A program made the translations under genes and the position numbers. Below the pieces are notes generated by a model that saw only the letters and a program-made list of their open reading frames with translations, ran no database searches and had not been told where the DNA came from. Positions 4,465-56,372 of a DNA stretch of 64,000 nucleotides are shown piece by piece; within the stretch, counting starts at the first letter, position 1, and each line of letters begins with the position of its first letter. The stretch comes from a virus: positions 149,709 through 213,708 of the IMG/VR virus record IMGVR_UViG_3300045988_082442. One strand, 5' to 3'.

Positions 4465-5220
4465 ATGGCTTTACAAGAAGTAACTACATTTGGAGCAACA
4501 GGTTATACACCTTATCATAATCATGCATCTACAACTACCTATGATGTACAAAGTAATTTAAGGGTTAGAAATGGACCAGGAGTTAATTACACACAATTAT
4601 ATTACAGATACCCAGGAGATTGGTGGACAGTTGCAGAAAACTATAATGGATGGTGTAGGGTACCAAATGCAAATGAATGGACATCTAATTCATATATGAG
4701 TAACCCAAACCCATCTCAGCCAACACCAGGTGAGTTTAGAGTAAATTCATTTAAAGTAACAGCAACCAGAGAAACTGCAAGTACAAAGCAAATATCTGTA
4801 AAGTATGAATGGTGGTGGAATAATGTAGGTGGTACAACAGAAACTTATTATCATTGGAGAGTATATTGCTTTGCACGTAAAAATGGTGGTGAGGCACAGT
4901 ATAATATTCACGGAGATACACAAAGCATAGGTAGAGATGGTAGTGGTTATTTTACAGAAACATGGACAATGGACGAAACATCTGGAAATACTACATTACA
5001 CTTTGGTAATTATGGTGTATGGTACACAAGTTATGGTGGTTATTGGAATCCTGGGGGTGGTGTAGGAAATAGCTTTACATTTAATATACCAAAGTACCAA
5101 CCAAGCCCAGTAAGACAATTAGTAAATGGTACCTGGGAAACAATACCTATTAGACATACATCAGATAATTCAAATGTAGTAATAAAACAATTCAATGGTT
5201 CAAGTTGGATAGATTTATAG
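4465..5220 (+). CDS. virion-associated protein with N-terminal bacterial SH3-like domain
   Basis: LRVRNGPGVNYTQLYYRYPGDWWTVAENYNGWCRV resembles SH3b cell-wall-binding domains; tightly packed after the fibre gene. Confidence 0.55.
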   Translation: MALQEVTTFGATGYTPYHNHASTTTYDVQSNLRVRNGPGVNYTQLYYRYPGDWWTVAENYNGWCRVPNANEWTSNSYMSNPNPSQPTPGEFRVNSFKVTATRETASTKQISVKYEWWWNNVGGTTETYYHWRVYCFARKNGGEAQYNIHGDTQSIGRDGSGYFTETWTMDETSGNTTLHFGNYGVWYTSYGGYWNPGGGVGNSFTFNIPKYQPSPVRQLVNGTWETIPIRHTSDNSNVVIKQFNGSSWIDL

Positions 5221-7552: not shown

Positions 7553-8593
7553 ATGATAAAAGATTATAGTAAAGTACCTCGTACATTTAGTGTTACAAAT
7601 AACACAGGAGCAGACAAGGAGATAGATTTAAGATTTATCAAATTAGTAGTTAAAAATGAAGAAACAATATCTGTAAAAGTAGAGGTAAGCGAACACCTTG
7701 CATTATTTACAGCAAGAGCAAATGAATTAGGTTTAGAGTTAGGAGAACCAGCAACAGAAGTAACTGATGAAGCTTCTATGAAAGAAGCATTAGTAGATGA
7801 AAATGTTAAAGAAGTTGTATTGTCAGCAGATTTAGAATTAGCAGAAGCATTAGTACCTACACATGATATAACAATAGATGGTAATGGAAAAACAATAACA
7901 TCTACTAAAAGAATCGCAAATGCTGAAGGTGTTACAGTTGAATTAAAAAATGTTAATGTAAATGTTACAGAAGACACAGCAGTTAGAGCATCAAAAGGTG
8001 GAAAAGTAATTATAGGAAGTGATGCTAAAATAACTAACACAAAAGGTTGGGGTGTAACAGCATTTGAAGAAGGAACAACAGTAGAAATAAATGGAACTAT
8101 TGAAACTGGTTCAGAACCTTGTATTGCAGGAAATGGTTCAGCAGGTAAAGGAAATACAAATATAGTAATAAATGAAGGAGCTAAATTAGTGTCTGATGAT
8201 ATAACTATATTCATACCACAAGACGGAACAGTTACAATCAATGGTGGTGAAATAGTAGGTAAAACTGCAATAGGTATAAAAGCAGGTACACTTAACATAA
8301 ATGGTGGTACATTGACAGCAAATGGTGAAAAAGTAGAAACACCAAAAGCAAATAACAATGGTATGGCTGCTTGGGGAGATACAATAGCAATAGAAGTAAA
8401 TAAAGGATATGCTGGTGGAAAAACAGATAAGAACATCAAAGTAAATGTATCAGACAAAGCAGTATTAACTTCAGCAAACGCAGAAGTAATAAGAGAATTC
8501 AACCCACTAAAAGAAACAATATCAACAGAAGTAACAGGTGCTTATGCAAATAAAGAAGAAGTTGCAGAAAACATATTTGTATATACAAAATAA
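7553..8593 (+). CDS. beta-helix repeat protein, putative spike/adhesin, 346 aa
   Basis: Repeats of the type VTINGGEIVGKTAIGIKAGTLNINGGTLTANG; late motif 7510-7525 upstream; terminator 8613-8650 downstream. Confidence 0.5.
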   Translation: MIKDYSKVPRTFSVTNNTGADKEIDLRFIKLVVKNEETISVKVEVSEHLALFTARANELGLELGEPATEVTDEASMKEALVDENVKEVVLSADLELAEALVPTHDITIDGNGKTITSTKRIANAEGVTVELKNVNVNVTEDTAVRASKGGKVIIGSDAKITNTKGWGVTAFEEGTTVEINGTIETGSEPCIAGNGSAGKGNTNIVINEGAKLVSDDITIFIPQDGTVTINGGEIVGKTAIGIKAGTLNINGGTLTANGEKVETPKANNNGMAAWGDTIAIEVNKGYAGGKTDKNIKVNVSDKAVLTSANAEVIREFNPLKETISTEVTGAYANKEEVAENIFVYTK

Positions 8594-8612
8594 TAATGAA
8601 ATAGATATATGA

Positions 8613-8650
8613 ACAAGGGATATGTAATAGTATCCCTTGTTTTATTATTT
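8613..8650 (+). terminator. rho-independent terminator
   Basis: ACAAGGGATA / TATCCCTTGT stem plus TTTT. Confidence 0.75.
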
Positions 8651-8651
8651 G

Positions 8652-8667
8652 GTAAAATACTAATGTA
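8652..8667 (+). promoter_or_regulatory. late-type motif copy 4, degenerate (GTAAAATACTAATGTA)
   Basis: 28 nt before remnant ATG 8695; drives the endonuclease cassette. Confidence 0.45.
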
Positions 8668-8682
8668 AAGGAAATTTAAGGA

Positions 8683-8719
8683 GGAGGTAATCAAATGGCA
8701 AATTCAGTAGCATATTATG
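8683..8719 (+). repeat. 37-bp direct repeat, copy A (RBS plus first codons of the spike gene)
   Basis: Identical to 10387-10423 except one T/C difference. Confidence 0.85.
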
Positions 8720-8733
8720 CTAAGATGTTGTAG
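8695..8733 (+). other. 12-codon remnant ORF (MANSVAYYAKML) duplicating the 5' end of gene 10399..12939
   Basis: 37-nt block 8683-8719 matches 10387-10423 (RBS, ATG and first 8 codons) with one mismatch. Confidence 0.7.
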
Positions 8734-8749
8734 TAAGTAGGAGGAAGAG

Positions 8750-10318
8750 ATGGGTAATAATAGAGTAAAGCTAAATGACAAGATTTTGTCAGATGAGGAG
8801 TTAAAGAACGAGATAATAAAATATTATATAAATAATAATCATACAATACAAGAAACAGCAGATTACTTTGACGTGAATATAACAACCATTACTAGAAAGT
8901 TAAAGAAGTTCAAAATTAGAAAATCAAAAGAACTTATAGAAGAATCTAAAAAGATGAGAAATAGAGAAAAATATGGTGTAGATTACCCTCTACAATTAGA
9001 AGAGACTACAAGGAAAAGGGAGCAAACCAATTTAGAGAAATATGGTTATAAAAATCAATTTCAAAGACCAGATATAATAGAAGATATACAAGATGCTAGA
9101 AGTGAAAAGATGGACAAGATTGTATCTAAAACAAAAGATACTTGGAATAAAAGATACGGTGGGCATCCATTATCAAATAAAGGGGTACAGCTTAAAGCAA
9201 AACAAACTAACTTAAAAAGATATGGTGTAGAATATTCATCCCAAAATGATGATATAAAGAAGAGGAAGAAAATTTCCAGAATAAAATACTTTGAGGAAAA
9301 TTCAGAAGAATATAATCTGTTAAGAGATAAAGAGAGATTTAAACAAATAGTATTAAGTATTCCTTACGAAGAAAGAACATCAACATCATGTGCAGAAAAA
9401 ATGGGCATACATACAACTACATTTAATAAGTGGTTTAAGCTTCATAATCTTAAAGAAGAGATTTCAATGAACTTTCAAAGAAGTAGACAGGAACAAGAAA
9501 TAACAGAATATATAAAATCATTTTATACAGGTATTGTAATAAATAACTATAAGCTAGATATGGAACTAGACATTTATTTACCAGAATTAAAATTAGGAAT
9601 AGAGTTTAATGGAACATATTATCATGATGTGGAACATAAAGGAAAAGGTTACCATCAAGAGAAATCATTCTATTTTAAAGAAAAAGGAATATTTGTATAT
9701 CATATATATGAATGGGAATGGGAAGATGATATAAAAAGAGAAATAATAAAAAATAGTTTAAGAAGAATGATACTAAACGATAACAAAGTTATCTATGCAA
9801 GAAAATGTGAACTTAAAGAAGTAGGTTCATCTGAATCATCTAAATTCTTAAATCAATATCATATACAAGGTAATGTAAATGCAACTATAAGATATGGTTT
9901 ATATTATGAAGATACCCTTGTAGAGATAATGACATTTTCAAAAGCAAGATATACAGACGGATATGAAATAATAAGATTGTGTTCTAAATCAGATATAAAT
10001 GTAGTAGGTGGAACAGAAAGATTATTTAAGCATTTTATAGAACAATATAATCCTAGTAGAATTATCTCATATTGTAACATAGATAAGTTTAAGGGAACAA
10101 TATATGAGAAAGTAGGCATGAAGCTGGACAAGATAAATCCACCAAATTATAAATGGGTAAATTGTAATGATAATGATGTTAAGTCAAGATACCAATGTCA
10201 AAAGCATCTAATAAGGGAAGATGAAAATGATACTAGAACTGAATCAGAAATTATGAAATCAAGAGGATATATAAAAGTAGAAGACGCTGGGACTTATAGA
10301 TTTATATTGGAGAGATAA
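8750..10318 (+). CDS. free-standing homing-endonuclease-like protein, paralog 1 (HTH, KYG repeats, Vsr/PD-(D/E)XK-like core, conserved C-terminal domain)
   Basis: Repeated EKYGV/KRYGV modules; LDIYLPELKLGIEFNGTYYHD nuclease-like core; C-terminal IYARKCELKEV..FLNQYHIQG..VVGG shared with 57655..59361 and 62020..63012. Confidence 0.65.
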   Translation: MGNNRVKLNDKILSDEELKNEIIKYYINNNHTIQETADYFDVNITTITRKLKKFKIRKSKELIEESKKMRNREKYGVDYPLQLEETTRKREQTNLEKYGYKNQFQRPDIIEDIQDARSEKMDKIVSKTKDTWNKRYGGHPLSNKGVQLKAKQTNLKRYGVEYSSQNDDIKKRKKISRIKYFEENSEEYNLLRDKERFKQIVLSIPYEERTSTSCAEKMGIHTTTFNKWFKLHNLKEEISMNFQRSRQEQEITEYIKSFYTGIVINNYKLDMELDIYLPELKLGIEFNGTYYHDVEHKGKGYHQEKSFYFKEKGIFVYHIYEWEWEDDIKREIIKNSLRRMILNDNKVIYARKCELKEVGSSESSKFLNQYHIQGNVNATIRYGLYYEDTLVEIMTFSKARYTDGYEIIRLCSKSDINVVGGTERLFKHFIEQYNPSRIISYCNIDKFKGTIYEKVGMKLDKINPPNYKWVNCNDNDVKSRYQCQKHLIREDENDTRTESEIMKSRGYIKVEDAGTYRFILER

Positions 10319-10386: not shown

Positions 10387-10423
10387 GGAGGTAATCAAAT
10401 GGCAAATCCAGTAGCATATTATG
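10387..10423 (+). repeat. 37-bp direct repeat, copy B
   Basis: See 8683-8719; the two copies bracket the endonuclease gene. Confidence 0.85.
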
Positions 10424-12939
10424 ATGGAGGTAATATAACTTGTTTCCCATCATCTAATGCAAAAGACTTTGGTAAGTTGCATACAGAATTTAATGAAGCA
10501 AGATTTGTAACAAGAGTAGCAAAAAAGAACTTTTGTATAAAGAATCCTAGTTTTACATTAAAAGCAGCAGTAGATATAACAACAAATACACCAATGCTTG
10601 AAATATCAGAAGGTGAGGCTTCTATAAATGGTATGGATATAATAGCATCAGTACCAATTCAAATAGCACCCCCAGGAACAGCAGGTAAATGGTATGTTGC
10701 ATTTAAACTAGGTAGAGATAATTTAGGTAGAGATTTTAAAGTAGGAAAATATAAATTAAAAGGTAATGTTTTAGGAGACCTAGTAGTAGGTGTTACAAAA
10801 ACATTTGAGGGTATGTATTTAACATATTTTGATAAAAGATTAGATGAGGGTGATGAAGACCCAGATATGTTATATTTAGGTAGTATATATTGGGATGGTC
10901 ATGATTTCTCAGATATAAAAGAAGACCCTCAAAAATATACTAGAATAGAAGCAGAAGATGTAGGATGTTACATAAAAGACCCAAAACATGCAGATATAAC
11001 ATATATGGATTTACAAAGTTTAATATACAAACTTCCTGACTGGTATTTCTCAAAAGAGGGAGATGTATGTTATGGAGAGATAAATGTAGTTCCAGGTAGA
11101 GGTTCAGCTCCATCTCCTTATAATGACCCAATGCCAGGATTCCAATTAAGAGCTTATGATGGCAATACGACTAAAATGGTTATTAAAGCATCTAGTATAG
11201 AAAACAGTACATTGATGAGATATGGAGATATAAATAATGATGGTGTTATAGACCAAGCAGATTTAGATTTAGTAACAAAGTTTGTTAATGGAACAGTAAA
11301 ACCAACACCTTTACAAAAAGAACTAGCTTGTGTAAGTGGAAATAGAGAAGGAAAGCTAACTGATAATGATGTTACTATGATTAAGAATTATGTAGCAGGT
11401 GAAAGACCAGTTGGTAAGAAAGGTGAAAAGAACCCAATAGGAAAAACAGGTTGTATCTATGGTATAGGGGATATAGAGAATGGAATGACATTATATTCTT
11501 CAAATTCTAAATCAGAAATAGATATGGACCATGCACAATTATATACTAACTTTGATGATGATATATTCCATATACACAATCCAGAAGGTATATGTGTTGA
11601 ATCTGGTGGTGGAAATATCAAGTTAGAAGCATATAATGATATTATAATGAAAAGATTTGATTCTCATGCACCAACATTAAAATTAACTGGAAATGTTCTT
11701 CAAATGACAGACCCAGATACACCAAACTTAAAATGGAAGCTTGATTTTATATTAGATAATAAGAAAGAGAAATTACAACAAACAATAGGTAAATCAATAC
11801 TACAATATGATTTATCAAATAAATACCTATCATTATTAGGAACAGATACATCAAGATTTGATATAATACCACCATTCTATATGGAAAATGCAGTAAATAG
11901 ATGTATAGGAACATTATACTTTGGACCAGAAGATGGTAATAATGATAACTACATGAGAAAAAATGAGATACAATTAGATAGTAATGCAGCAGATAAGGTT
12001 GAACTAAAAATGACTGACAGATTTATATATTTAAAAGATGAAAATAAAGGTTCAACAAATAGCTACTTCAAAGTAGGTGCAGCAGATGATAATAACTATG
12101 TTAAAATAAATTCTAATGGAAATACAGAAATAAAAAATACAACAGGAACAGCAGAGATTAAATTTGCAGGTAGTGGAACAAATACAGCAAGAATATATCA
12201 TAATCATAATGACAACTATATCAGAATAGATACTAATTTATGGGTTAAAAATGATATAGAAGCAGGTGGTGATGGATACTTTAATGGTGGAGATGTTCAT
12301 ATCAAAAATGCAGGTGGACAATCTAATCTATACTTTACAGATGGAAGCAAAACATATAAGATTTATCATATTAATGGTGAAACTGTATTAAGAATGAATA
12401 CTACACTTAATATGAACAATAACAATATAGAAAATGTAAACAATATAAAAACAACTACATTAAATGTAGGAACAGGCTATAATAAATTGACAGTTGATAA
12501 AGATGGTAACTTAAATACAACAGGAACAATTACTGGTAAAAAGGTATATGGAGCTGTATATAATGGATTTGGTGAGATATTTAAGAAAGCCAAAGATGAA
12601 GTTATTGAATATGGATACATTGTATATATGGGAACTGATGGACTAGTTCATAAGGTATCTAAAAAAGAAGACCTAAATTCTATTGTTGGTATATGTTCTA
12701 ATACAATAGGTATGGAGATGGCTGGTGATGCTCAAAACTTAGCTGAAGATGAAAAAGTAGAAGTAGAAATGTTAGGTAAAATATGGGTTAAATCAGAAGA
12801 TACATCTATAAAACCAGGAGATATGATAATGGCATTAGAAGATGGTACAATAGCAAAAACAATAGTTAAAGAAGATAAGTTCGGTATTGCAATGACATCA
12901 AATATAGATGGTAAAGTAAGAATAGTTTATAATGGCTAA
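10399..12939 (+). CDS. tail spike/fibre protein with internal dockerin-like module, 846 aa
   Basis: Late motif 10341-10356; two Ca-binding dockerin-type repeats at 11224-11400; beta-rich N/G/T repeats. Confidence 0.7.
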   Translation: MANPVAYYDGGNITCFPSSNAKDFGKLHTEFNEARFVTRVAKKNFCIKNPSFTLKAAVDITTNTPMLEISEGEASINGMDIIASVPIQIAPPGTAGKWYVAFKLGRDNLGRDFKVGKYKLKGNVLGDLVVGVTKTFEGMYLTYFDKRLDEGDEDPDMLYLGSIYWDGHDFSDIKEDPQKYTRIEAEDVGCYIKDPKHADITYMDLQSLIYKLPDWYFSKEGDVCYGEINVVPGRGSAPSPYNDPMPGFQLRAYDGNTTKMVIKASSIENSTLMRYGDINNDGVIDQADLDLVTKFVNGTVKPTPLQKELACVSGNREGKLTDNDVTMIKNYVAGERPVGKKGEKNPIGKTGCIYGIGDIENGMTLYSSNSKSEIDMDHAQLYTNFDDDIFHIHNPEGICVESGGGNIKLEAYNDIIMKRFDSHAPTLKLTGNVLQMTDPDTPNLKWKLDFILDNKKEKLQQTIGKSILQYDLSNKYLSLLGTDTSRFDIIPPFYMENAVNRCIGTLYFGPEDGNNDNYMRKNEIQLDSNAADKVELKMTDRFIYLKDENKGSTNSYFKVGAADDNNYVKINSNGNTEIKNTTGTAEIKFAGSGTNTARIYHNHNDNYIRIDTNLWVKNDIEAGGDGYFNGGDVHIKNAGGQSNLYFTDGSKTYKIYHINGETVLRMNTTLNMNNNNIENVNNIKTTTLNVGTGYNKLTVDKDGNLNTTGTITGKKVYGAVYNGFGEIFKKAKDEVIEYGYIVYMGTDGLVHKVSKKEDLNSIVGICSNTIGMEMAGDAQNLAEDEKVEVEMLGKIWVKSEDTSIKPGDMIMALEDGTIAKTIVKEDKFGIAMTSNIDGKVRIVYNG

Positions 12940-17197: not shown

Positions 17198-18026
17198 ATG
17201 ATAAAAAGAAATAAGAGAAAATCAACAACAAACAGAAGATTTAAAGATACTAAAAGGAGTAGTCACCTGAGAAGGAACAATAAGTTTAGTGTAAAGAAAG
17301 GTTTTAAAAAGCCACATTTAAGAATAGACAGAATAATATTAGTTATAATGATTATAGTTTTTATAATATTAATACATAATCAATATAAGAAACAACATGA
17401 AACAGACAATACATTAAATAAAATGATAAATACTTTAGAAACAATACAGACAGAGCTAGAAGATATGACTGATAAACAAGTGCAATTAGAAGAGAAACAA
17501 AAAGAGTTAGAAGTATCAAAAGCTCAAAAGAAAGAAGAGAAAGCAAGATTAGCAAGGGAAGCAGAAGAAAAGGCTAGAATTGCTAAGGAAGAAGCTAGAA
17601 AAGCAGAAGAAGCTAGAAAAGCAGAAGAAGCTAAGAAACAAGAACAAATAAGAGTTGCCAGTACAAAACCAGTTACATCAAGAGGTGGAACAACAGTAAG
17701 GGAATCAAGCTCTAGTTCTAAATCAGGATTACAATCTTATGCACATGATTTATGTATAAATACTTATGGTTGGTCAGAAAATGATTATCAATGTTTAGTT
17801 AAATTATGGAATAGAGAATCAGGATGGAATCCAAATGCCCATAATAAATCATCAGGATCCCATGGTATTCCACAGTCATTACCAGCATCTAAGATGGCTA
17901 GTGAAGGTTCTGATTATTATACAAATGGAAAAACCCAGATACGCTGGGGATTACGGGTATATTAAAAATAGATATAGCAATCCTTCTAGTGCCTGGGCTC
18001 ACTCACAGCAGACAGGGTGGTATTAA
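17198..18026 (+). pseudogene. membrane-anchored lytic-transglycosylase-like cell-wall hydrolase; reading frame broken near 17946-17955
   Basis: TM helix, KAEEARKAEE coiled coil, ESGWNPNAHNKSSGSHGIPQ motif. The conserved C-terminal YIKNRYSNPSSAWAHSQQTGWY lies in another frame (ORF 17835..18026). Confidence 0.7.
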
Positions 18027-18562
18027 TGGAAATATGGAAAGATATTAAAGGCTATGAAGGTTACTATCAAGTAAGTAATCAAGGAAGGGTTAAAAGTCTA
18101 AGCAGAACTGTAAGTAAGAATTATAATCCAAGAAGAATAAGGGAAAGAATACTAAAAGTGAGACCAGATAAAGACGGTTATCTTTGTGTTACACTATCTG
18201 TTGATAATGTTAAAAAGGGTTTCCCTGTCCATAGGCTTGTTGCAATGACTTTTATTCCAAATCCAGAAAATAAAAGAACTGTAAATCACATAGATGGAGA
18301 TAAAACTAATAATTGTGTTGAAAATTTAGAGTGGGCTACTGATTTAGAACAAACAGTTCATGGAATCAGGCTTGGGATTATAAATCCACATCATACAAAG
18401 AATAGAAGACGTAGAAGGGTTATAAGGAGTGACGGTATTATTTATGATTCTATAAAGGAGGCTGCAGAGAAAAATAATCTTTTTACTTCTAATATAATTG
18501 TATGCTGTCAAGGTAAGGTAAATTCTATTGGTGGCTATCATTGGGATTATTATAGTGGTTAA
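18026..18562 (+). CDS. HNH homing endonuclease (NUMOD4-like N-terminus plus HNH)
   Basis: MEIWKDIKGYEGYYQVSNQGRVKS and HRLVAMTFIPNPENKRTVNHIDGDKTNNCVENLEWAT. Confidence 0.85.
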   Translation: MEIWKDIKGYEGYYQVSNQGRVKSLSRTVSKNYNPRRIRERILKVRPDKDGYLCVTLSVDNVKKGFPVHRLVAMTFIPNPENKRTVNHIDGDKTNNCVENLEWATDLEQTVHGIRLGIINPHHTKNRRRRRVIRSDGIIYDSIKEAAEKNNLFTSNIIVCCQGKVNSIGGYHWDYYSG

Positions 18563-19146: not shown

Positions 19147-21063
19147 ATGGGGTTTAGAGATAGAATGCAAAACTTTATGGAAAGCACATTCAAAGTCAGA
19201 ATAATACCTAAACAAACACCAAGAGAAGGAATGGCTATTACATCTGAAAAGAACTCTTTACCAAACCAATTAGATGAAGCTGTTGAATCTGGAAAAAGGA
19301 TTGACCTATCTGGATTAAGAGATTTAATGTCATTAAAAACAGATAGAAATGAGCAATATAAAGCTTACGAAGAAATGGTTGCAGATGGACGTATAGGTGC
19401 AGCTGTTGAGATGTATGCTAACGATACAGTACAACAATCTCCAGAGGGTAAAGTTATTTGGGTAGAAAGCGATAATGCTGATGTAGCATCCTATGGAAAT
19501 AAACTATTAGAAGATTTAGGTGTTGCACAAAATCTTTGGAGTTGGGCATACTGTTTATGGTTATATGGTGACGTGTATTTAGAGTTATTTGAAAATACTT
19601 CTACATTAGGAAATAAACCAACATTATTGACAGAACCAGTAAATCATAATGCTAATTTCCAAAAACAAGTTCCTATTGAAGGAGCATATCTTGAAAGATA
19701 TGTGGAAAAGGTTCCAAACCCAGCAGATGTATATGACCTACAATTCAAAGGTAAGACATCTGGATTTGTTAAATCAAGAGAACCATTAACACCAACATAT
19801 AAAAATAGAATAAACACATATAATGTTACATCATCAACTGAAAAGATAGATATATTATCTCCTATGAAGTTTGTTCATATATGTTTATCACCTAATATTT
19901 CAAGATACCCAGAGAAATTTAGTATAGTACAAGAAACACCAGATAATAAGAATGTGCATACAACTGGTGGAGATGCAATAAATGAAAATTCAGTAGGTGG
20001 ATCTACTTATACTGTATTAAGAGGACAATCAATGTTAGAGAATGTATATGGACCATATCAAGCATTGAAACTAAAAGAAGATAGTATATTATTAGAAAGA
20101 ATAACAAAAGCTTCCATTACAAGAATTATACAAATAGAGCTAGGTGATATGCCAGAAAGTCAAAAAGACAGGGTATTAAGGGATTTAAAGGAACAAATAG
20201 AACAACAACTTCAAATGAATAAATTTACTGGTGATATAAATAGCAGAGCAAGTGCTAACCCATCAGAGAATATAATCTACACAACTACTAAAAATGGTAA
20301 GGGTGTAATTAATACAGTAAATATTGGTGGAGAAGCAGATTTAGGTAATATAGAAGATATTACACAATCTGAGAATAAACTATATGGTGCTTTACAAGCT
20401 AATAAAGCAGCTTTAGGTGCAGATATGGATGGTACTGGATTATCAAATGGTGGTTCATTAACAGAATTAAACTCAATATATGCTAGAAGAATAGTTAGAG
20501 GGCAAACAGCACTAACATCTGGAATAACTACTTTAATAAATATATTTGCATTAAAAGAAGGACTTGCAGTTACTCATGTAAATAACTTTAGAGTTAGAAT
20601 GGTTAAACCAGTAACATCAGAAGATACAAGAAGAGATGATTTATTATCTAATAAGATTAGAAATGTAAGTGATTTACTAAATCTATTAAATGATAAAGAT
20701 ATAATTGACTCAGTATCAAGATTAAAGATTATAGCTAACTTAATGGTTAACTACCTATCTCAACAAGATATTGCAGATGTATTAAATGAAATACTTGAAT
20801 CTCAAGAAGCAGAAGTTGAAGATACAGATAAGGGAGATGGTGATGATACATTTGATGATATTACAACACATGGGGGTTCTGGAAGTAGTTTAAGAGAACC
20901 ACCATCAGGAGGGGAAGCACCTAGTAAACCAAATAGCCCAGATTTAGATACTGAAACAGATACTGAAACAGAACCTAATACGCCAGATTTAGAATCTAAT
21001 GTAGGAGCAGGTTCTACTGATGATATAGACTTATCAGAAATAGAAGGTAAAGATTTATTATAG
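19147..21063 (+). CDS. portal protein, T4 gp20-like
   Basis: By memory of T4 gp20: YKAYEEMVADGRIGAAVEMYANDTV and LKLKEDSILLERITKASITRIIQIELGDMP parallel the gp20 TYRNLM..AVSEIVSDAI and [30 protein letters not shown]. Confidence 0.8.
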   Translation: MGFRDRMQNFMESTFKVRIIPKQTPREGMAITSEKNSLPNQLDEAVESGKRIDLSGLRDLMSLKTDRNEQYKAYEEMVADGRIGAAVEMYANDTVQQSPEGKVIWVESDNADVASYGNKLLEDLGVAQNLWSWAYCLWLYGDVYLELFENTSTLGNKPTLLTEPVNHNANFQKQVPIEGAYLERYVEKVPNPADVYDLQFKGKTSGFVKSREPLTPTYKNRINTYNVTSSTEKIDILSPMKFVHICLSPNISRYPEKFSIVQETPDNKNVHTTGGDAINENSVGGSTYTVLRGQSMLENVYGPYQALKLKEDSILLERITKASITRIIQIELGDMPESQKDRVLRDLKEQIEQQLQMNKFTGDINSRASANPSENIIYTTTKNGKGVINTVNIGGEADLGNIEDITQSENKLYGALQANKAALGADMDGTGLSNGGSLTELNSIYARRIVRGQTALTSGITTLINIFALKEGLAVTHVNNFRVRMVKPVTSEDTRRDDLLSNKIRNVSDLLNLLNDKDIIDSVSRLKIIANLMVNYLSQQDIADVLNEILESQEAEVEDTDKGDGDDTFDDITTHGGSGSSLREPPSGGEAPSKPNSPDLDTETDTETEPNTPDLESNVGAGSTDDIDLSEIEGKDLL

Positions 21064-29455: not shown

Positions 29456-32400
29456 ATGTCTAACAAGCTAATTGAAGCATTAGAAGTACATGATGAATTA
29501 AATCCAGTACTTTGGGATGGAATGGAATTAAAAGATGAAGTTAAAAATAAACTATTAGAGATTGCTGATACCTTTATAAAGGGGCTAGAATATCCAATAA
29601 ATGTAGCTGATATAAGATTTTTAGGTTCAAATGCTAGTTTTAATTACAATGAAAACTCTGATATAGACTTACATATTATTTCTAATTTTGATTTAACTTA
29701 CATAGATAAGAACATATTACAACTATTGTATAATTCTAGTAAGAATAACTTTAATAACAATCATGATATATCTATACATGGTATTCCAGTAGAAATTTAT
29801 GTTGAAGATATGAACAGTATGAATGCTACAAATGGTTCTTATAGTTTAATAAAAGATGAGTGGGTTAAGATACCAAAACCAATAGACTATGTCATTCCAG
29901 ATTATTCCAAAGAGTTAAATGATTATTTAGATGAATATAATCAAGTTATGAAAGATGGAACATTAGATGAAATAGAAGAACTAATAAACAGAATTTATAT
30001 TGGAAGAAAAGATGGTTTAGCAACTGAGGGGGAAGCAAGTATTGGAAACTGTGTATTTAAAGAATTAAGAAATAGAGATGTTATTAGTAATTTAAGAGAT
30101 AGATTACATGAATTAGAAAGCGAAGAACTTACACTTGAAAACAAGAAACTTGAGGAAGATGTAATTGACGATGTTGCTGTTGAAATGCAAGACGAACCAA
30201 CACCAGAGCAAATAAAAGAAAAAGAAGATGAATATACTGAATATATAGAAACACATATAAAAAATGTAAGAAAAGCTTATGATAGAATTGTAAAAGATTT
30301 AATCAAAGATGAATTTACTGATACACAACTAAAACAGTTAGAAGATAATTTAGAAGTACACGATAAAGATAAATATATACCATTTATGTTTGATGCTTAT
30401 AGAAGAGACCATTTACCAGTAAATGAAAAAGAAAAACAAGAAGCCAAAGAGGATTATGATATTGCCTGGGATTATCATAAGCATAATAATACTCATCATT
30501 GGGAATATTGGTTAAATAGTGCTGGTGAGTTTGCTCAAAACATAGATGGGGAAGCAATGAAACTTGCTTATGCAGAAATGTTTTGTGATTGGTTATCTTT
30601 TGGTTTTAGAAAGGAAGAAACATCAGCTACTGGTGAGTCTACTGAATTTAAAACATGGTATGGTGAGAGTGGTAAGAATATAAAAATACATCCACAATTA
30701 AGAGAATGGTTTGATGATAAAGTTGATACTATTATAAAATATATTGACGAGAATAAAGATACTATTTATGTAGATAAAGAACAAGAAGGAAAATGCTTGA
30801 CAAAATTTAAAAATTGTAATAAAATAGAAGAAGATGATAATATTAATAGAGAGGTAGGTGAAAATATTATGTCTAATGAAGATAAAGAAAAAGAATTAAA
30901 AAGAATGCAAGAATGGGTAAATAAAGTACTAGAAAACAGAAAACTTGAAGAAAGCTCTATGAGTAAAGTAGCAGAATATATTTCTCATTACCAAGTTGGG
31001 TTTATAACAGCTTTTAGACAAGGTAATACAAAAGCAGTAAATCAAGATAATAATCACTGGTTAAAGCTAGATATAATACAAGATTTAGATAAAACAAAAT
31101 TATCTTATATAAAAGTAGATGGTACTTATCCAGAACAAAAGAAGAATGCAGATGGTACAGACGCTGAAGGAGAATATGTGCAAATATTTGAAGAAACTTT
31201 TGCAGTAATAAATGACCAATATAGAAGTGATGACTTTATAAAAATTATGTGCAGTCTAGTTAAGAAATATAATCAAGATAGTACATTGATAGTATTCCCA
31301 CCATCAAATGATTCTAAAAAGATAGAGGATAATATAACAGCAGCTGAATATGATGGAGATGGTAATAAGAAAGCAACATATAAAGGTTTTACTGTTAGTG
31401 TTTATGACAAATATAAGGATAAAAATACTGCAGTTGAAGAATATTACACAAAAGTTGGAAACAAGAAACTAAGTTTCACTAATAGACAAGAAGTAAAAGA
31501 ATGTATTGATAAAGAACCAGAATATGATGTTTACACTTATAGATTAAAGAAACAAGGAAATCAAGGAAGTATGCTAGAATCCCAAAGAAAACATATCTAT
31601 GTAGAAGGATTATTAAATGAATTTAATAAGTTAGAAGAAAGTAGTATGTCAAGGATATTACAACTAATTCAACAAGGATATTTTGCAACAGTAAGTGCTG
31701 ATATTAGTATTATAAGATATGCTTTCTATGTAGCAAAAGATGAAGAATTTATTAAATTAGTTGATAATGATATTCAAAACTTTAATAAACTAGACAACCA
31801 AGAAGAAATAGAAAGTGAACTAAGCTCTAAATATGGTAAAGATTTATTGACATATAATAAAGATGCTTATAAGCAATTACAAGAATCTGTAAGAAATACT
31901 GGATTAGGATATGTTCCAATAGAAGGAGTTTATACTTACTCTGATAGCAATCAAGAAAGTACAGAACCATCATTGTTCATATCTATATCAAAAGACAAAC
32001 GAGCTTCATTTGAGGACTTTAAAAATACTATAATAGATATAGGTAATACTTACTATCAAGAAAGTGTTGTTATAGGCAATTCTGATAAGTCTGACAATGG
32101 GGATATAAAAGCAGATAATGATGGAAAAATAACTATTGATGCTTCTTTATATGATTGTGAAACAGGTTCAGTCATAGCATCAGAGTATTATGATACAGAA
32201 TATAATAAAATTAAGTTATCTGATTTTTCAGGTTTCTTATCAAGATTAGTTAAAGATAAGAATAAAGCATTTGCAATGTATAAATTTGATGAAAGTGTAG
32301 AAGTATTTAATGGTATTGATACATCTTCATATACAAAATGTTTACAAGCAGGTGGAGTACATGAAAGATGGAAACAACATATAAACCCAGTAGCAAATAA

Positions 32401-32986
32401 AATGACAGAAAAATATTCTAAGCTACAAGAAGATTATGATGACTATAGAAGTAAAGTTAAGTTTGATTTGGAATATAGAGTAATAGCTCCTATTACTGTA
32501 AAACAAGAAGATGAATTTGACACATACGGAAAATATGACCAAGAAATGGACATTGATATAGATAGTCTTTATGAATCTTATGAAGATGTAGCTAAACAAA
32601 TTCAAGACTTAGTTGATGATGAAGATTTATTAAAAGAAATCTTCCCTAATGTAGGTTTAGGTAGAGTATATGTTGGAAATATTGAACTTGATGAAGATAA
32701 ACTTGATTTTGATATTGGTTTCAGTAGTATAGTAGACCCAGTAGAGAGAGGTAATGATATAAAACTTGATGAAGATGAGATTAAAGAACAAATAAAAGAT
32801 TTAGTTATTTGTATCATTGAAAATGTTGATTATGTATCAGCAAAGCAAGTATATACAGAATATACTGGGGAAGTAGATGAGGATGGAGAACCTATTGAAG
32901 AAGAAATTACTTCTGATAATGAAATAAGCTATTCTATAAATCTTGATAAATCAAAAGATATTGAAATACACAAAATAAGTGAATAG
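29456..32986 (+). CDS. 1176-aa composite protein: Pol-beta-type nucleotidyltransferase domain, HD/HHW-motif domain, then duplicated acidic modules
   Basis: LGSNASFNYNENSDIDLHI fits G[SG]-x10-DxD; HDKDKY...HNNTHHWEYW...EMFCDW; two KLEESSMS(K/R)-led paralogous modules. Confidence 0.8.
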   Translation: MSNKLIEALEVHDELNPVLWDGMELKDEVKNKLLEIADTFIKGLEYPINVADIRFLGSNASFNYNENSDIDLHIISNFDLTYIDKNILQLLYNSSKNNFNNNHDISIHGIPVEIYVEDMNSMNATNGSYSLIKDEWVKIPKPIDYVIPDYSKELNDYLDEYNQVMKDGTLDEIEELINRIYIGRKDGLATEGEASIGNCVFKELRNRDVISNLRDRLHELESEELTLENKKLEEDVIDDVAVEMQDEPTPEQIKEKEDEYTEYIETHIKNVRKAYDRIVKDLIKDEFTDTQLKQLEDNLEVHDKDKYIPFMFDAYRRDHLPVNEKEKQEAKEDYDIAWDYHKHNNTHHWEYWLNSAGEFAQNIDGEAMKLAYAEMFCDWLSFGFRKEETSATGESTEFKTWYGESGKNIKIHPQLREWFDDKVDTIIKYIDENKDTIYVDKEQEGKCLTKFKNCNKIEEDDNINREVGENIMSNEDKEKELKRMQEWVNKVLENRKLEESSMSKVAEYISHYQVGFITAFRQGNTKAVNQDNNHWLKLDIIQDLDKTKLSYIKVDGTYPEQKKNADGTDAEGEYVQIFEETFAVINDQYRSDDFIKIMCSLVKKYNQDSTLIVFPPSNDSKKIEDNITAAEYDGDGNKKATYKGFTVSVYDKYKDKNTAVEEYYTKVGNKKLSFTNRQEVKECIDKEPEYDVYTYRLKKQGNQGSMLESQRKHIYVEGLLNEFNKLEESSMSRILQLIQQGYFATVSADISIIRYAFYVAKDEEFIKLVDNDIQNFNKLDNQEEIESELSSKYGKDLLTYNKDAYKQLQESVRNTGLGYVPIEGVYTYSDSNQESTEPSLFISISKDKRASFEDFKNTIIDIGNTYYQESVVIGNSDKSDNGDIKADNDGKITIDASLYDCETGSVIASEYYDTEYNKIKLSDFSGFLSRLVKDKNKAFAMYKFDESVEVFNGIDTSSYTKCLQAGGVHERWKQHINPVANKMTEKYSKLQEDYDDYRSKVKFDLEYRVIAPITVKQEDEFDTYGKYDQEMDIDIDSLYESYEDVAKQIQDLVDDEDLLKEIFPNVGLGRVYVGNIELDEDKLDFDIGFSSIVDPVERGNDIKLDEDEIKEQIKDLVICIIENVDYVSAKQVYTEYTGEVDEDGEPIEEEITSDNEISYSINLDKSKDIEIHKISE
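30797..30825 (+). promoter_or_regulatory. early-type promoter cassette embedded in frame inside ORF 29456..32986 (-10 TAAAAT)
   Basis: AAAATGCTTGACAAAATTTAAAAATTGTAA TAAAAT, including the upstream AAAATGC context of the intergenic copies. Confidence 0.55.
30869..32986 (+). CDS. possible nested 705-aa C-terminal product started from an internal promoter, RBS and ATG
   Basis: Full promoter copy 30797-30825, GAGGTAGGTG RBS and ATG 30869, in frame with 29456..32986. Confidence 0.4.
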   Translation: MSNEDKEKELKRMQEWVNKVLENRKLEESSMSKVAEYISHYQVGFITAFRQGNTKAVNQDNNHWLKLDIIQDLDKTKLSYIKVDGTYPEQKKNADGTDAEGEYVQIFEETFAVINDQYRSDDFIKIMCSLVKKYNQDSTLIVFPPSNDSKKIEDNITAAEYDGDGNKKATYKGFTVSVYDKYKDKNTAVEEYYTKVGNKKLSFTNRQEVKECIDKEPEYDVYTYRLKKQGNQGSMLESQRKHIYVEGLLNEFNKLEESSMSRILQLIQQGYFATVSADISIIRYAFYVAKDEEFIKLVDNDIQNFNKLDNQEEIESELSSKYGKDLLTYNKDAYKQLQESVRNTGLGYVPIEGVYTYSDSNQESTEPSLFISISKDKRASFEDFKNTIIDIGNTYYQESVVIGNSDKSDNGDIKADNDGKITIDASLYDCETGSVIASEYYDTEYNKIKLSDFSGFLSRLVKDKNKAFAMYKFDESVEVFNGIDTSSYTKCLQAGGVHERWKQHINPVANKMTEKYSKLQEDYDDYRSKVKFDLEYRVIAPITVKQEDEFDTYGKYDQEMDIDIDSLYESYEDVAKQIQDLVDDEDLLKEIFPNVGLGRVYVGNIELDEDKLDFDIGFSSIVDPVERGNDIKLDEDEIKEQIKDLVICIIENVDYVSAKQVYTEYTGEVDEDGEPIEEEITSDNEISYSINLDKSKDIEIHKISE

Positions 32987-38164: not shown

Positions 38165-40954
38165 ATGGCTATTAAAATAGCAGATAACTTTTTATATCAA
38201 GGTAGAAAACCCTTGGACAATAGAATTTTAATAGATACAGTGGCTGATATGGTGGCAATGATTCCAGCAATTATATATGATGGTATGATTGCATATGTTA
38301 AAGATACTAAAGAATACTATATGTATGATTCAACAAACACAGTTGACCCCGTATTAGCTAAATGGAGATTATTCTCAGATGGACAACCATCATTAAAAGA
38401 ATATCTACAAAATACTAAATATAAAAAAGATGACCTTGTATATTTAGGCGAAAGTTTAGCAAGAGTAGTATCAGATTTTACATCAGATAATACTAAATCT
38501 ACAATAGATGGTTCATTTGAATTTGATATTGATAATGCAAAACTAATACCAGTTGGAGCTACAACTGAGTTTAAAATATATAAGAGCAATAATGCTTTAG
38601 ATACTAATATTGATGGTATATCAACACTTCAATTTACAGATTTAGTAACTGCAGGAATTACAATAGATGATATAGAAGTTAATCAATTAGTATATGACAT
38701 CGATGGTACAGTTGCTAAAGTAGACAGCATAAATATAGGTGCTTCAACTCTAACTGTAACAACTATTACATCTAGTGGTAGTGGTGCTTCTGGAATATAT
38801 TTAAGTAATGATATACTAAATAAAACAATACTAGGTACTACATCTGTATCAATTTTAAATTTATCATGTGTAGGAACACCATCAGCATTAGAAATAAATA
38901 CTCACGTATATGATAGTGAGGGTACAGTTGCTAGAGTAAAAGGAATTAATACTGCTGGAGATATTATAGATTTAGAAACAATAACTATTTCTGGAAAAGA
39001 TTATTCTATATATAGAAGCACTAAAGAATTAAGTAGTGTTATAACAGATACTTCAATTTTATCTTTTACAGATATTATAACACCAATGGGAACTACAATA
39101 GCAGATTTAAAAGTAAATCAAATAGTATTTGATGAGAAAGGAACAGTTGCAAAAATAGATGCAGCTGATGAGGTTAATGGTAAATTTACAGTTACAACTA
39201 TGACAACCGCAGACAATATAAATCACATGCCTATCGCACCAGATACTAAAGAGTTAAAGATAAATAATGGTGGTTCAGGTTATCAAGTAGGAGATATAGT
39301 TGAAACAACCGAAACAGGTGTATTTGCAGAAATAACTTCTGTTATAGCAAGTGGTGTTATAGATGGTGTTAAGTATTCAACTAGCACAACTCAAACAACT
39401 ACTGGTACAGGTGCAATAATTGATAATAAACAAGTTATATATGGTGGTTATGGAAGTAATTGGGCTGCATTATCTGAGGCAGCAGTATTAGTTGCACAAA
39501 CACTAGTTGACCAATTTGACTATGAAGTTGGATATAGTTTTGAAATTACAGCACAAGGTACAGGATATGTAGTAGGTGATGTAGTAAGTACAGATACTAC
39601 AGGACAATTTGTTAAGGTAACTAAAATAGGTACTGCAGGTGAAATTCTTGAAGTTGAATATACAAGAAATTTAACAGCAACTACAAGTGGTACGGGTGCA
39701 GTAATCAAAGCAACTTTAGATACAAATGTATTTAAAATACCAGACCAATATTGGAATGCTGGGTTATCATTATTCTATCTAACAAATGATGATGGTGCTA
39801 GTGTTCAATATTATAGAACAGGAGATATTCTAGTTAAATATAATGCTGGTAATAATAACCAGGTTTTTGAATTTACATTTAACGAAGTAAATGGAACTAT
39901 TACACAAAAAGTAACAACAGCAGGAGGAACTACAAAAGGTTCATCTATGAAAGAATATCAAACAACTGCTACGATTAGTAGGACAATAAATGACTTAACT
40001 ATAATAAATGTAACAGATATACCAAGTGTTACAGTAGTTGCAGATTTAGAAGTAGAACAACTAGTATATGACATTAAAGGTACAGTTGCTAAAATTACAA
40101 GTATTGATACAACAACAGGAGATATTGCATTACAAACTATGACTATTTCAGGTGCTGATGGTGATTTATTTATGCCTATTGCACCAGACACAAAGGAATT
40201 GAAAATTAAAAATTCTGGTAATGGTTATGTAGTAGGAGATATAATTGAAACTACAACTACAGGTATATTTGCAACAGTAGATAGTGTTGATGCAAATGGT
40301 TCAATAACTCAAGTATCATTATCTTCAGCAACTACTCAAAGTGTAACAGGTACAGATGCTATAATTTCTTATGAACAAGTAATTTATGGTGGTTATAACA
40401 ATCAATGGGCTCCTTTAATAGATGCAGCTGTTTTAAATGCAAAAGTAGTAGCAGATATTGATGGTTACGAAATTGGTTATGATTACACAATAGCAAATGC
40501 AGGTACAGGTTATCAAGTAGGAGATATAGTTGCAACAGATATAGCTGATGTATTTATAGTAGTTAATTCTGTTGGTGCTTCTGGGGAAATTACAGATGTT
40601 GGATTTACAAGATTAAAAGCACCAAATACAACAGGCACAGGTGCAAATATAACTGCTGTACAAAATACAGATAAATTAGTTATACCTGATATTCAATGGA
40701 ATGGTGGCTGCACAATATTTGGTTTAACAAATAATGATGGTGCTTCTACCGAGTTCTGTAGAACAGGTGATATAAACACTAAATATGGTGTGAGTGAAAA
40801 TAATATATATAAATTTGAATATGATGATGTTAATGGAATAATTACACAAACTGCACTTCCTTTTGGAAATGGTTGTAGTTGTGATTCAGACTCACTAACT
40901 GATGCTGATATAGACGCAGCAATACTAGATTCATTGACAACATTAAATATATAG
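38165..40954 (+). CDS. tail fibre protein with large internal duplication, 929 aa
   Basis: Two blocks of about 230 aa, both starting MPIAPDTKELKI; four copies of a module of about 35 aa (VNQLVYDIDGTVAKVDSI type). Confidence 0.8.
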   Translation: MAIKIADNFLYQGRKPLDNRILIDTVADMVAMIPAIIYDGMIAYVKDTKEYYMYDSTNTVDPVLAKWRLFSDGQPSLKEYLQNTKYKKDDLVYLGESLARVVSDFTSDNTKSTIDGSFEFDIDNAKLIPVGATTEFKIYKSNNALDTNIDGISTLQFTDLVTAGITIDDIEVNQLVYDIDGTVAKVDSINIGASTLTVTTITSSGSGASGIYLSNDILNKTILGTTSVSILNLSCVGTPSALEINTHVYDSEGTVARVKGINTAGDIIDLETITISGKDYSIYRSTKELSSVITDTSILSFTDIITPMGTTIADLKVNQIVFDEKGTVAKIDAADEVNGKFTVTTMTTADNINHMPIAPDTKELKINNGGSGYQVGDIVETTETGVFAEITSVIASGVIDGVKYSTSTTQTTTGTGAIIDNKQVIYGGYGSNWAALSEAAVLVAQTLVDQFDYEVGYSFEITAQGTGYVVGDVVSTDTTGQFVKVTKIGTAGEILEVEYTRNLTATTSGTGAVIKATLDTNVFKIPDQYWNAGLSLFYLTNDDGASVQYYRTGDILVKYNAGNNNQVFEFTFNEVNGTITQKVTTAGGTTKGSSMKEYQTTATISRTINDLTIINVTDIPSVTVVADLEVEQLVYDIKGTVAKITSIDTTTGDIALQTMTISGADGDLFMPIAPDTKELKIKNSGNGYVVGDIIETTTTGIFATVDSVDANGSITQVSLSSATTQSVTGTDAIISYEQVIYGGYNNQWAPLIDAAVLNAKVVADIDGYEIGYDYTIANAGTGYQVGDIVATDIADVFIVVNSVGASGEITDVGFTRLKAPNTTGTGANITAVQNTDKLVIPDIQWNGGCTIFGLTNNDGASTEFCRTGDINTKYGVSENNIYKFEYDDVNGIITQTALPFGNGCSCDSDSLTDADIDAAILDSLTTLNI

Positions 40955-48601: not shown

Positions 48602-48609
48602 ATTTATTA

Positions 48610-48643
48610 AGCTTTAGGTAGTTGAAATATACTACTTAAAGCT
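48610..48643 (+). terminator. 13-bp hairpin between the two giant fibre genes
   Basis: AGCTTTAGGTAGT / ACTACTTAAAGCT (one G.T pair); weak T tail. Confidence 0.5.
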
Positions 48644-48675
48644 AAACTATAAATAAAAAGGAGGTTATTAAAATT

Positions 48676-54189: not shown

Positions 54190-54260
54190 GACGGAAGAAT
54201 ATTATTATTTTCTTTCTATTCTCATACATGTATTTGAATAAAAAGAAGAGAGGTAATAGC

Positions 54261-56026: not shown

Positions 56027-56372
56027 TAACTAATATTTAGTAATTTTCTAAATTCGGGTAACATTAAACACTGTGAATTGCTGGAACATCCTAAAGCTCA
56101 AAGTACCAAAGTGTGAAAATCTTTGAGATGTAACAATGGACAATCAGCAGCTGTTATTTGACAAATAAATGTCAAATATGCAGTTCAACGACTATCGAAA
56201 GTATAGACTAAGAGAAATACTTAGTTGAATAAATGAGTAGAGTACAACCTAAGTAGGTTGGAAGTGCAGTGCAACATATAAAGGTTAAAACAATATATGT
56301 TGAAGATATAGTCTAATCTTATATGAAAGTATAAGAGTTATAATGGAAACGATTATAGCGTAATGAATAATG
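56027..56372 (+). ncRNA. group I intron (IA2-like, td-like), ORF-less, 346 nt
   Basis: P1: exon AATGTTGCT 56018-56026 pairs with GGTAACATT 56057-56065, with the terminal U.G pair. P7: GACTAT 56190-56195 pairs with ATAGTC 56308-56313. AACGACTATC and GAAGATATAGTCT match remembered td-intron strings. P8 hairpin 56272-56302. P9 hairpin (6-nt TGAAAG loop) 56318-56335 plus a further 3' hairpin. Terminal G at 56372. Confidence 0.8.

Follow-up and report, generated by a model that had tools for sequence, protein, structure and literature searches.

We analyzed a 64,000-nucleotide stretch of viral DNA (IMG/VR record IMGVR_UViG_3300045988_082442, positions 149,709 to 213,708), referred to here as the window. 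On its + strand, at 10399..12939, lies a gene for a tail fibre or spike protein of 846 residues, which was identified from the open reading frame (ORF), its homologues, an AlphaFold2 (AF2) model and Foldseek matches to phi29 gp12 and to fibre proteins with an intramolecular chaperone (IMC). The protein consists, in order, of an N-terminal domain, a dockerin, a shaft and a C-terminal autochaperone. The type I dockerin module (residues 275-335, 11221..11403, + strand) has two F-hand calcium loops and three helices, and was delimited by Pfam, PDB and Foldseek matches and as an indel within the fibre family.

Residues 275-335 are a genuine type I dockerin module by profile, by PDB matches, by predicted fold and by conservation in the family. 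The translation of 11224..11400 (+ strand) is GDINNDGVIDQADLDLVTKFVNGTVKPTPLQKELACVSGNREGKLTDNDVTMIKNYVAG, residues 276-334 of the fibre ORF; the Y in the peptide quoted by the first-pass annotation is residue 275. That annotation had proposed a dockerin here and named a search with the dockerin hidden Markov model (HMM) as a check, and Pfam Dockerin_1 (PF00404) does match the segment above its gathering cut-off of 22.9 bits. The alignment spanned residues 275-332 and positions 1-56 of the 57 in the profile. It scored 28.2 bits (E = 2.1e-6) in the whole fibre protein and 37.2 bits (E = 3.4e-9) in the isolated 85 residues. Dockerin_1 was the only Pfam family above cut-off for this segment, the EF-hand families being far below theirs (EF-hand_7, E = 4.5e-3, 17.7 bits vs a cut-off of 30). 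Further, phmmer against PDB sequences matched type I dockerins of Clostridium thermocellum (4fl4_A, E = 1.1e-6; CelD 1clc, E = 2.3e-6). A profile built from 15 dockerins of the family matched 30 PDB dockerin chains, including 1OHZ, CelS and Amy16 of Ruminococcus bromii (E-values of 7e-17 for 8x39, 1e-11 for CelD and 5.6e-11 for 1ohz_B).

The predicted structure agreed with the profile. Over the dockerin segment of the AF2 model the predicted local distance difference test (pLDDT) was 82-91 by blocks and 73 over loop 2 (residues 311-320). The model contained the three helices of a dockerin fold, at residues 286-297, 304-310 (linker helix) and 322-332. Foldseek superposed it on 4fl4_G with a root-mean-square deviation (rmsd) of 1.9 A over 62 columns and a template modelling (TM) score of 0.75 normalised to the target, and matched 4uyp_B (TM 0.77) and 8x39_A as well. 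Two tandem F-hand segments of about 22 residues, each a 12-residue Ca loop followed by a helix, were seen both in the sequence and in the model. There, a strand (272-274) and not a helix leads into loop 1, which is the arrangement of an F-hand and not of an EF-hand.

The two calcium loops differed from each other. Loop 1 (residues 277-288, 11227..11262, + strand), D-I-N-N-D-G-V-I-D-Q-A-D, is canonical, as judged by conservation in 40 relatives. Loop 2 (residues 313-324, 11335..11370, + strand), S-G-N-R-E-G-K-L-T-D-N-D, is non-canonical according to the family alignment. At the Ca-ligand positions 1, 3, 5, 9 and 12 loop 1 has D, N, D, D, D and the putative loop 2 has S, N, E, T, D, that is Ser, Glu and Thr in place of Asp at positions 1, 5 and 9. 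The variant (S-x-N-x-E-G-x-x-T-x-x-D) is common to the window's clade of ten. Most relatives have a canonical loop 2, DVNHDGVIDEKD; in other clades it reads D-V-N-H-D-G-V-I-D-E-K-D and loop 1 follows the pattern YGD[VL]N[RQ]DGVID..D, and both loops are canonical in the relatives outside the window's clade. The earlier description of two F-hand segments with the spacing and residues of type I dockerins was therefore borne out by profile, PDB matches, fold and conservation, except for the residues of loop 2.

Conservation was computed over 40 non-redundant relatives of the fibre that are only 35-40% identical overall. G276, D277, G282, D288, N315 and D324 were present in all of them, N279 and D281 in 37 and D285 in 32, while Asp stood at positions 1, 5 and 9 of loop 2 in 33 of the 40. 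Residues E322, K323, Y327, I328 and N330 of helix 3 were conserved. The exposed positions 286, 287, 290, 293 and 294 of helix 1 were hypervariable (2.4-2.9 bits). The mean column entropy was 1.31 bits for the dockerin vs 1.06 for the N-terminal domain, 1.86 for the shaft and 1.66 for the C-terminus. Since the Ca ligands are invariant or nearly so and the module is more conserved than the shaft or the C-terminus, these alignments indicate that the dockerin is kept under clear purifying selection for a function.

The remaining parts of the protein are those of a phage fibre. The N-terminal domain (residues 1-265, 10399..11193, + strand) has the lowest mean entropy and about 50 invariant residues; as the most conserved part, it is presumed to be the virion or baseplate anchor. 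The shaft (residues about 350-715, 11446..12543, + strand) is rich in beta structure, being modelled nearly entirely as strands, and is the most variable part. The C-terminal beta-tulip or IMC domain (residues about 716-846, 12544..12936, + strand) resembles that of phi29 gp12 according to Foldseek and to Pfam matches of relatives. The AF2 model, a monomer obtained from 86 homologues, had a mean pLDDT of 79.7, and the linkers flanking the dockerin were of low confidence (48-66 and about 61). The best Foldseek matches of the whole fibre model were 3suc (E = 1.2e-5) and 3gqh_A (E = 1.7e-4), which represent the phi29 gp12 appendage and its C-terminal autochaperone, and beta-tulip cement proteins. 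In the viral structure library BFVD it matched fibre proteins with a Peptidase_G2 IMC, pre-neck appendage proteins and proteins resembling tail fibres. Pfam gave no match for the C-terminal domain of the window fibre itself; in the aligned C-terminus of relatives it found Peptidase_G2 (PF11962) in 9 of 28 and Phage_cement_2 in 5 of 28. PHROGs returned no match for the fibre. The models thus show a fibre predicted to mature with a phi29 gp12-type C-terminal autochaperone. Its N-terminus, MANPVAYYDGGNITCFPSS, is without a hydrophobic leader and no signal peptide was found, and by genomic context the protein is a virion component. The location of the dockerin within a phage fibre or spike, as first annotated, is supported by the autochaperone C-terminus, by the IMC fibre matches in BFVD and by the T4-type structural genes in the neighbourhood.

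We found 110 cluster representatives homologous to the fibre, mostly on contigs of about 200 kb. In an alignment of 86 close representatives the dockerin was present in 59 and absent from 27, as a clean insert of about 62-75 residues between the N-terminal domain and the shaft. Its retention in 59 of 86 places the match far beyond chance. Dockerin_1 matched all 21 dockerin-bearing members of a 28-sequence alignment, and all 15 family segments searched in isolation (best E = 1e-14). Some dockerin-less fibres (P0053, P0060 and P0085) are otherwise co-linear. An exhaustive HMM search with the N-terminal domain of the fibre gave 117 clusters at 50% identity, only 6 of which contained the dockerin. 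Judged from this clean presence and absence, the dockerin is an accessory module of the fibre family. On a neighbour-joining tree of the N-terminal domain the main dockerin-less clade was nested among dockerin-positive clades that carry the neighbour gene described below, which suggests loss or recombinational exchange rather than a single recent gain.

The neighbour gene (7553..8593, + strand) encodes 346 residues, with a conserved N-terminal domain of about 65 residues (the N-domain) followed by a right-handed beta-helix body, as seen from Pfam, AF2, Foldseek and co-occurrence. The N-domain begins MIKDYSKVP and forms four strands plus a helix in the AF2 model of the whole neighbour protein (pLDDT 93.2). 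The body matched Pectate_lyase_5 (E = 1.4e-9), and the closest structures in Foldseek were the L. reuteri serine-rich repeat protein (SRRP) adhesin, polysaccharide lyases and phage depolymerases. We considered the N-domain as a cohesin and rejected it, as it has about 65 residues and four strands plus a helix, with no cohesin among its Foldseek matches. Across phages the body varies: a Pectate_lyase_5 beta-helix in the window, SprB/PKD/immunoglobulin (Ig)-type repeats of 361-944 residues in others, and further types of 277-540 residues. Two bacterial-type homologues of the beta-helix, P0160 and P0164, have C-terminal tails that look dockerin-like by eye, had no Pfam support at E<=0.01 and were dropped. 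Between the neighbour and the fibre genes lies a homing endonuclease gene (8750..10318, + strand; PHROG 3339, E = 5e-103), which is not part of the system. It is missing in the otherwise syntenic relative L056, where the neighbour and fibre genes are directly adjacent.

The neighbour gene was found together with the dockerin. In contexts de-replicated at 90% identity of the fibre N-terminal domain, a gene with the N-domain stood beside the fibre in 6 of 9 dockerin-positive vs 0 of 8 dockerin-negative contexts (one-sided Fisher p = 0.007, uncorrected for phylogeny). Three further co-occurrences, P0156 with P0065, P0161 with P0059 and P0150 with P0013, are suggested by contigs of equal length in the tables of the two proteins. 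The gene is immediately upstream of the fibre in most contexts and 1.4 kb downstream in contexts of the L017 type. The association is asymmetric: the N-domain never occurred without the dockerin, and the dockerin sometimes occurred without the N-domain. All-against-all clustering of the neighbourhood ORFs revealed no other gene family that tracks the dockerin. The slot upstream of the fibre (7553..10318 in the window) is a variable cassette, empty in the dockerin-less phages. In L007/L015 it holds three tandem paralogues of about 150 residues (MIPFCK..., 8498..9904) with no Pfam match, and in L023/L030 a different protein of 198 residues (L023, 13768..14364).

Cohesins are the partners expected from the first-pass annotation, which had named a search of the phage for them. 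Pfam Cohesin matched none of the 41 window ORFs scanned, which included every + strand ORF of at least 133 residues and the whole structural module; the scan covered 64 kb of a genome of about 213 kb at the sensitivity of Pfam, by which divergent cohesins could be missed. The Pfam annotations precomputed for eight fetched contexts likewise listed no cohesin at up to 10 kb from the fibre gene, and there was none in the region upstream of the window, which showed only genes of the tRNA-repair type (Thg1, RNA ligase/kinase) and small genes. With no cohesin in the ORFs and contexts scanned and no secretion signal, the dockerin fibre is not a member of a cellulosome-type system. The same annotation had also suggested that the spike could be plugged onto a cohesin-like partner in the baseplate. 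The co-occurring neighbour gene gives indirect support to plugging onto a virion partner; its conserved domain is not a cohesin.

The window as a whole is a phage structural module of about 30% guanine-plus-cytosine (GC) content with almost all long ORFs on the + strand. It includes genes for a T4-type portal (19147..21063), a Gp18-like sheath (38165..40954), a prohead protease (54228..55790) and a Gp23-type capsid protein (56370..57542), and tail-fibre genes with Collar and F5/8 type C domains (44756..52392). In this last group, the fibre proteins at 44756..48601 and 48676..52392 exceed 1200 residues each and carry phage tail Collar domains, the second having an F5/8 type C (discoidin) domain in addition. 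There are thus several distinct candidate receptor-binding proteins besides the dockerin fibre. Also in the tail-fibre cluster, a protein of 571 residues (42987..44702) matches PF12810 (E = 2.2e-14), the ALK/LTK glycine-rich domain, which is familiar above all from animal receptor kinases. In the structural region a protein of 1176 residues (29456..32986) carries DUF5662 (E = 3e-22) together with an S-adenosylmethionine lyase domain (E = 8e-13). Genes of the homing-endonuclease type (PHROG 3339/DUF7487; NUMOD4+HNH_3) were noted at 8750..10318, 18017..18562, 57655..59361 and 61532..61948. GC skew was strongly positive in every 4-kb bin (0.10-0.36), and no tRNA genes were found in the window.

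An identical fibre protein is encoded on a human-gut metagenome contig of 213,644 bp, and the phage is a human-gut myophage of about 213 kb with T4-like capsid, portal and sheath genes. Neither tblastn of the fibre nor megablast of 20 kb gave a match among 50,697 phage records. The closest cultured relatives of the portal are large myophages of Streptococcus, Listeria and Bacillus (28-32% identity), a relative of the phage carries a GH25+CW_7+LysM lysin, and the metagenome-assembled genome (MAG) bins that hold relatives are labelled Bacilli, Clostridia or Romboutsia, labels that are inconsistent, the relatives being mis-binned. Taken together, portals, lysin and MAG labels point to a host that is probably a member of Bacillota. 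The Clostridia-type host proposed in the first annotation is plausible at the level of Bacillota, while a Clostridia or cellulosome-bearing host specifically is not shown. An SH3b-like domain that had been cited in its favour, in the ORF of 251 residues at 4465..5220, gave no Pfam or PHROG match at E<=1e-3. The homologue of this ORF in L007/L015 has an SH3-like motif by eye only.

Tentatively, we see in the dockerin a socket on which a second receptor-binding protein of the phage docks, the candidate being the product of 7553..8593; we regard this as possible, short of probable. Because the ends of the dockerin lie close together, the insert would stick out sideways as a knob close to the proximal fibre end. 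IMC-bearing fibres are trimers, and if this one is too, it would bear three knobs. Each knob may serve as a Ca2+-dependent protein-docking socket. The neighbour, usually encoded immediately upstream, would bind it through its conserved N-terminal domain of about 65 residues, and its variable body (beta-helix adhesin- or lyase-like here, SprB/PKD/Ig-type in relatives) would recognise the host surface, resulting in a branched, exchangeable receptor-binding complex. Several points argue for such a socket: the two genes are linked and co-occur asymmetrically, the neighbour is made of an adaptor and a variable body, the dockerin would lie proximally, and the face of its helix 3 is conserved. A conserved N-terminus with variable bodies of 277-944 residues is how exchangeable receptor-binding proteins in need of an attachment site are usually built, a conserved helix 3 face is what would be expected for a conserved phage partner, and we counted the lack of a Pfam cohesin in the structural module in the same direction. 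In a fuller version, which we hold to be rather unlikely, the dockerin would form the socket in a 'Lego' system of the virion and bind, Ca2+-dependently, the small non-cohesin domain of interchangeable beta-helix or Ig-repeat tail proteins.

A number of points weigh against the docking of the neighbour. We know of no experimentally characterised dockerin that binds anything but a cohesin-fold module, and in the AF2 model the N-domain of the neighbour is too small and of the wrong topology for a cohesin. Three dockerin-positive lineages (L007/L015, L023/L030 and L058) have no gene with the N-domain at up to 10 kb from the fibre, which means that the dockerin cannot be dependent on it. Few independent evolutionary events lie behind the co-occurrence, which could be an effect of lineage, and the N-domain might bind another part of the fibre or the baseplate instead. 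The cohesin scan, as stated, reached only 64 of about 213 kb, and only at Pfam sensitivity. A different account, which we would call unlikely, comes second in our provisional ranking, after virion-internal docking of the neighbour: the knobs may bind cohesins displayed by the host envelope or by other bacteria that are attached to fibre (scaffoldins, anchoring proteins or cohesins of the Clostridium perfringens type) and so mediate primary or reversible adsorption that depends on Ca2+. The one function established for dockerins is the binding of cohesins. The module sits in a protein of the receptor-binding type, no phage cohesin was found in the window, and gut phages of cohesin-bearing hosts do carry dockerins, the Ruminococcus phage NatCom_28274 being an example. 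Hypervariable exposed positions in helix 1 next to fixed Ca ligands are seen in receptor-tracking surfaces, and presence or absence between close relatives is typical of host-range modules. However, the nearest cultured relatives infect Bacilli, the host is probably low in GC, and the window has a GC content unlike that of R. bromii and R. champanellensis. These two species are the known cohesin bearers of the human gut, and their GC content is higher. Moreover, the knob would stand at the proximal end of the fibre and not at the distal tip, and adhesion to bacterial cohesins explains neither why the helix 3 face is conserved nor why the neighbour gene is linked.

The dockerin may also act with no partner, as a hinge or stabiliser gated by Ca where anchor and shaft meet, stiffening or deploying the fibre outside the Ca-poor cytoplasm. 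This we find improbable. No residues are better conserved than the Ca ligands in the module, which lies exactly at the domain junction between two linkers of low confidence, and dockerins fold on Ca2+ binding. According to Peer et al. 2009, many non-cellulosomal dockerins reportedly occur in genomes without cohesins, which would be in keeping with a partner-less role. A structural need at this junction is difficult to reconcile with P0053, P0060 and P0085, the otherwise co-linear fibres that do without the module, and the conserved exposed residues E322, K323, Y327 and N330 of helix 3 suggest an interface and not only a scaffold. It is very hard to maintain that the segment is no dockerin at all, but an ordinary EF-hand pair or a fortuitous match of low-complexity sequence rich in D, N and G. 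The weak EF-hand matches, by EF-hand_7 in the window protein as given above and with E-values as low as 1.1e-8 in relatives, and the non-canonical loop 2 of the window protein could be read in this way. Against them stand Dockerin_1 as the sole family above cut-off, its matches to 15 of 15 family members tested, the modelled entry into loop 1 from a strand, the dockerin-like repeat spacing and the superposition on solved dockerins at 1.9 A.

Of the high-affinity protein plugs of bacteria, dockerins, with which cellulosomes are assembled, are the ones best understood, and it has long been asked what the many non-cellulosomal ones do. A dockerin in the virion fibre of human-gut jumbo phages, which form a widespread group, offers a concrete and testable case. 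If the dockerin is a socket for the neighbouring protein, it would be the first dockerin pairing that is independent of cohesins, with a new type of dockerin partner, and the first case of a virus assembled with cellulosome-type modules. Receptor-binding proteins could then be swapped on a constant fibre, a natural modular host-range system useful in phage engineering. If instead it binds host cohesins, phages would use cohesin-bearing scaffolds as receptors, predation would be linked to the machinery that degrades fibre and starch in the gut, and the novelty would be comparable. Both outcomes can be tested with a recombinant module of about 70 residues.

Compared with the type I dockerins of cellulosomes (C. 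thermocellum Cel9/CelD/Xyn10B/CelS; 4FL4, 1CLC, 1OHZ, 2MTE) and of the R. bromii amylosome (9QF9), the phage module has the duplicated F-hand of about 22 residues in common with them, as well as the three-helix fold, PF00404 and, in loop 1 of the window protein and in both loops of the relatives outside its clade, the D/N ligands at loop positions 1, 3, 5, 9 and 12. Its identity to the 4FL4 chains was 31-32%, at an rmsd of 1.9 A. The cellulosomal modules are C-terminal on secreted enzymes, whereas this one is internal to a virion fibre with no signal peptide, and the S-x-N-x-E-G-x-x-T-x-x-D loop 2 of the window's clade differs from theirs. Its repeats are asymmetric, with a hypervariable helix 1 and a conserved helix 3, which argues against the symmetric dual binding mode. 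The cohesin-dockerin pairs of C. perfringens glycosidase toxins (2OZN/2JNK) are likewise non-cellulosomal and from low-GC Bacillota, and gave a weak sequence match (E = 0.36), but they are secreted enzymes with a known cohesin-like partner.

Dockerins were met in other viral proteins, too. XTK83925.1 of the Ruminococcus phage NatCom_28274 (Ca. Heliusvirales; PV036439.1; L055, 538..1626), annotated as hypothetical, has 362 residues with a signal peptide, a weak match to the starch-binding family CBM26 and a C-terminal Dockerin_1 (E = 7e-12). From its sequence it looks like a phage-encoded, secreted protein of the amylosome type. It is thus a further dockerin of a Bacillota gut phage, but in a secreted moron-type protein and not in a virion fibre. 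An unrelated IMG/VR protein of 1071 residues (L053, 4234..7449) has two dockerin-like repeats about 130 residues apart (Dockerin_1, 23.8 bits), and an unrelated IMG/VR Prophage_tail protein of 944 residues (L054, 3104..5938) has one F-hand-like segment by eye, with no Pfam dockerin match.

The fibre shares its C-terminal beta-tulip autochaperone, an aid to trimer folding, with the phi29 gp12 tailspike (3SUC/3GQH) and the Peptidase_G2 IMC fibres of cyanophages. The phi29 protein is without a dockerin, and its N-terminal domain and shaft are unrelated to those of the window fibre. Branched receptor-binding complexes, in which a baseplate-anchored protein holds exchangeable spikes via conserved N-terminal adaptors, are known from TSP1-4 of phage CBA120 and gp63.1/gp66 of G7C. 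The likeness to these is one of concept only; their docking domains differ, and a dockerin socket would be new. The Ig-like domains of T4 Hoc and the BACON domains of crAss-like phages are accessory adhesion modules on virions, with glycan ligands. As non-essential modules they show presence/absence polymorphism like the dockerin does, but their folds differ, and a dockerin binds protein. Full-text literature searches that paired dockerin with phage terms brought up no account of a phage whose tail fibre has a dockerin. The nearest mentions were dockerin genes beside NosD-like proteins on putative ANME virus contigs (PMC13452462) and a CBM template match in a coliphage (PMC5967307). In summary, the fibre carries a familiar plug at a new location, and the partner of this plug may be of a new kind as well.

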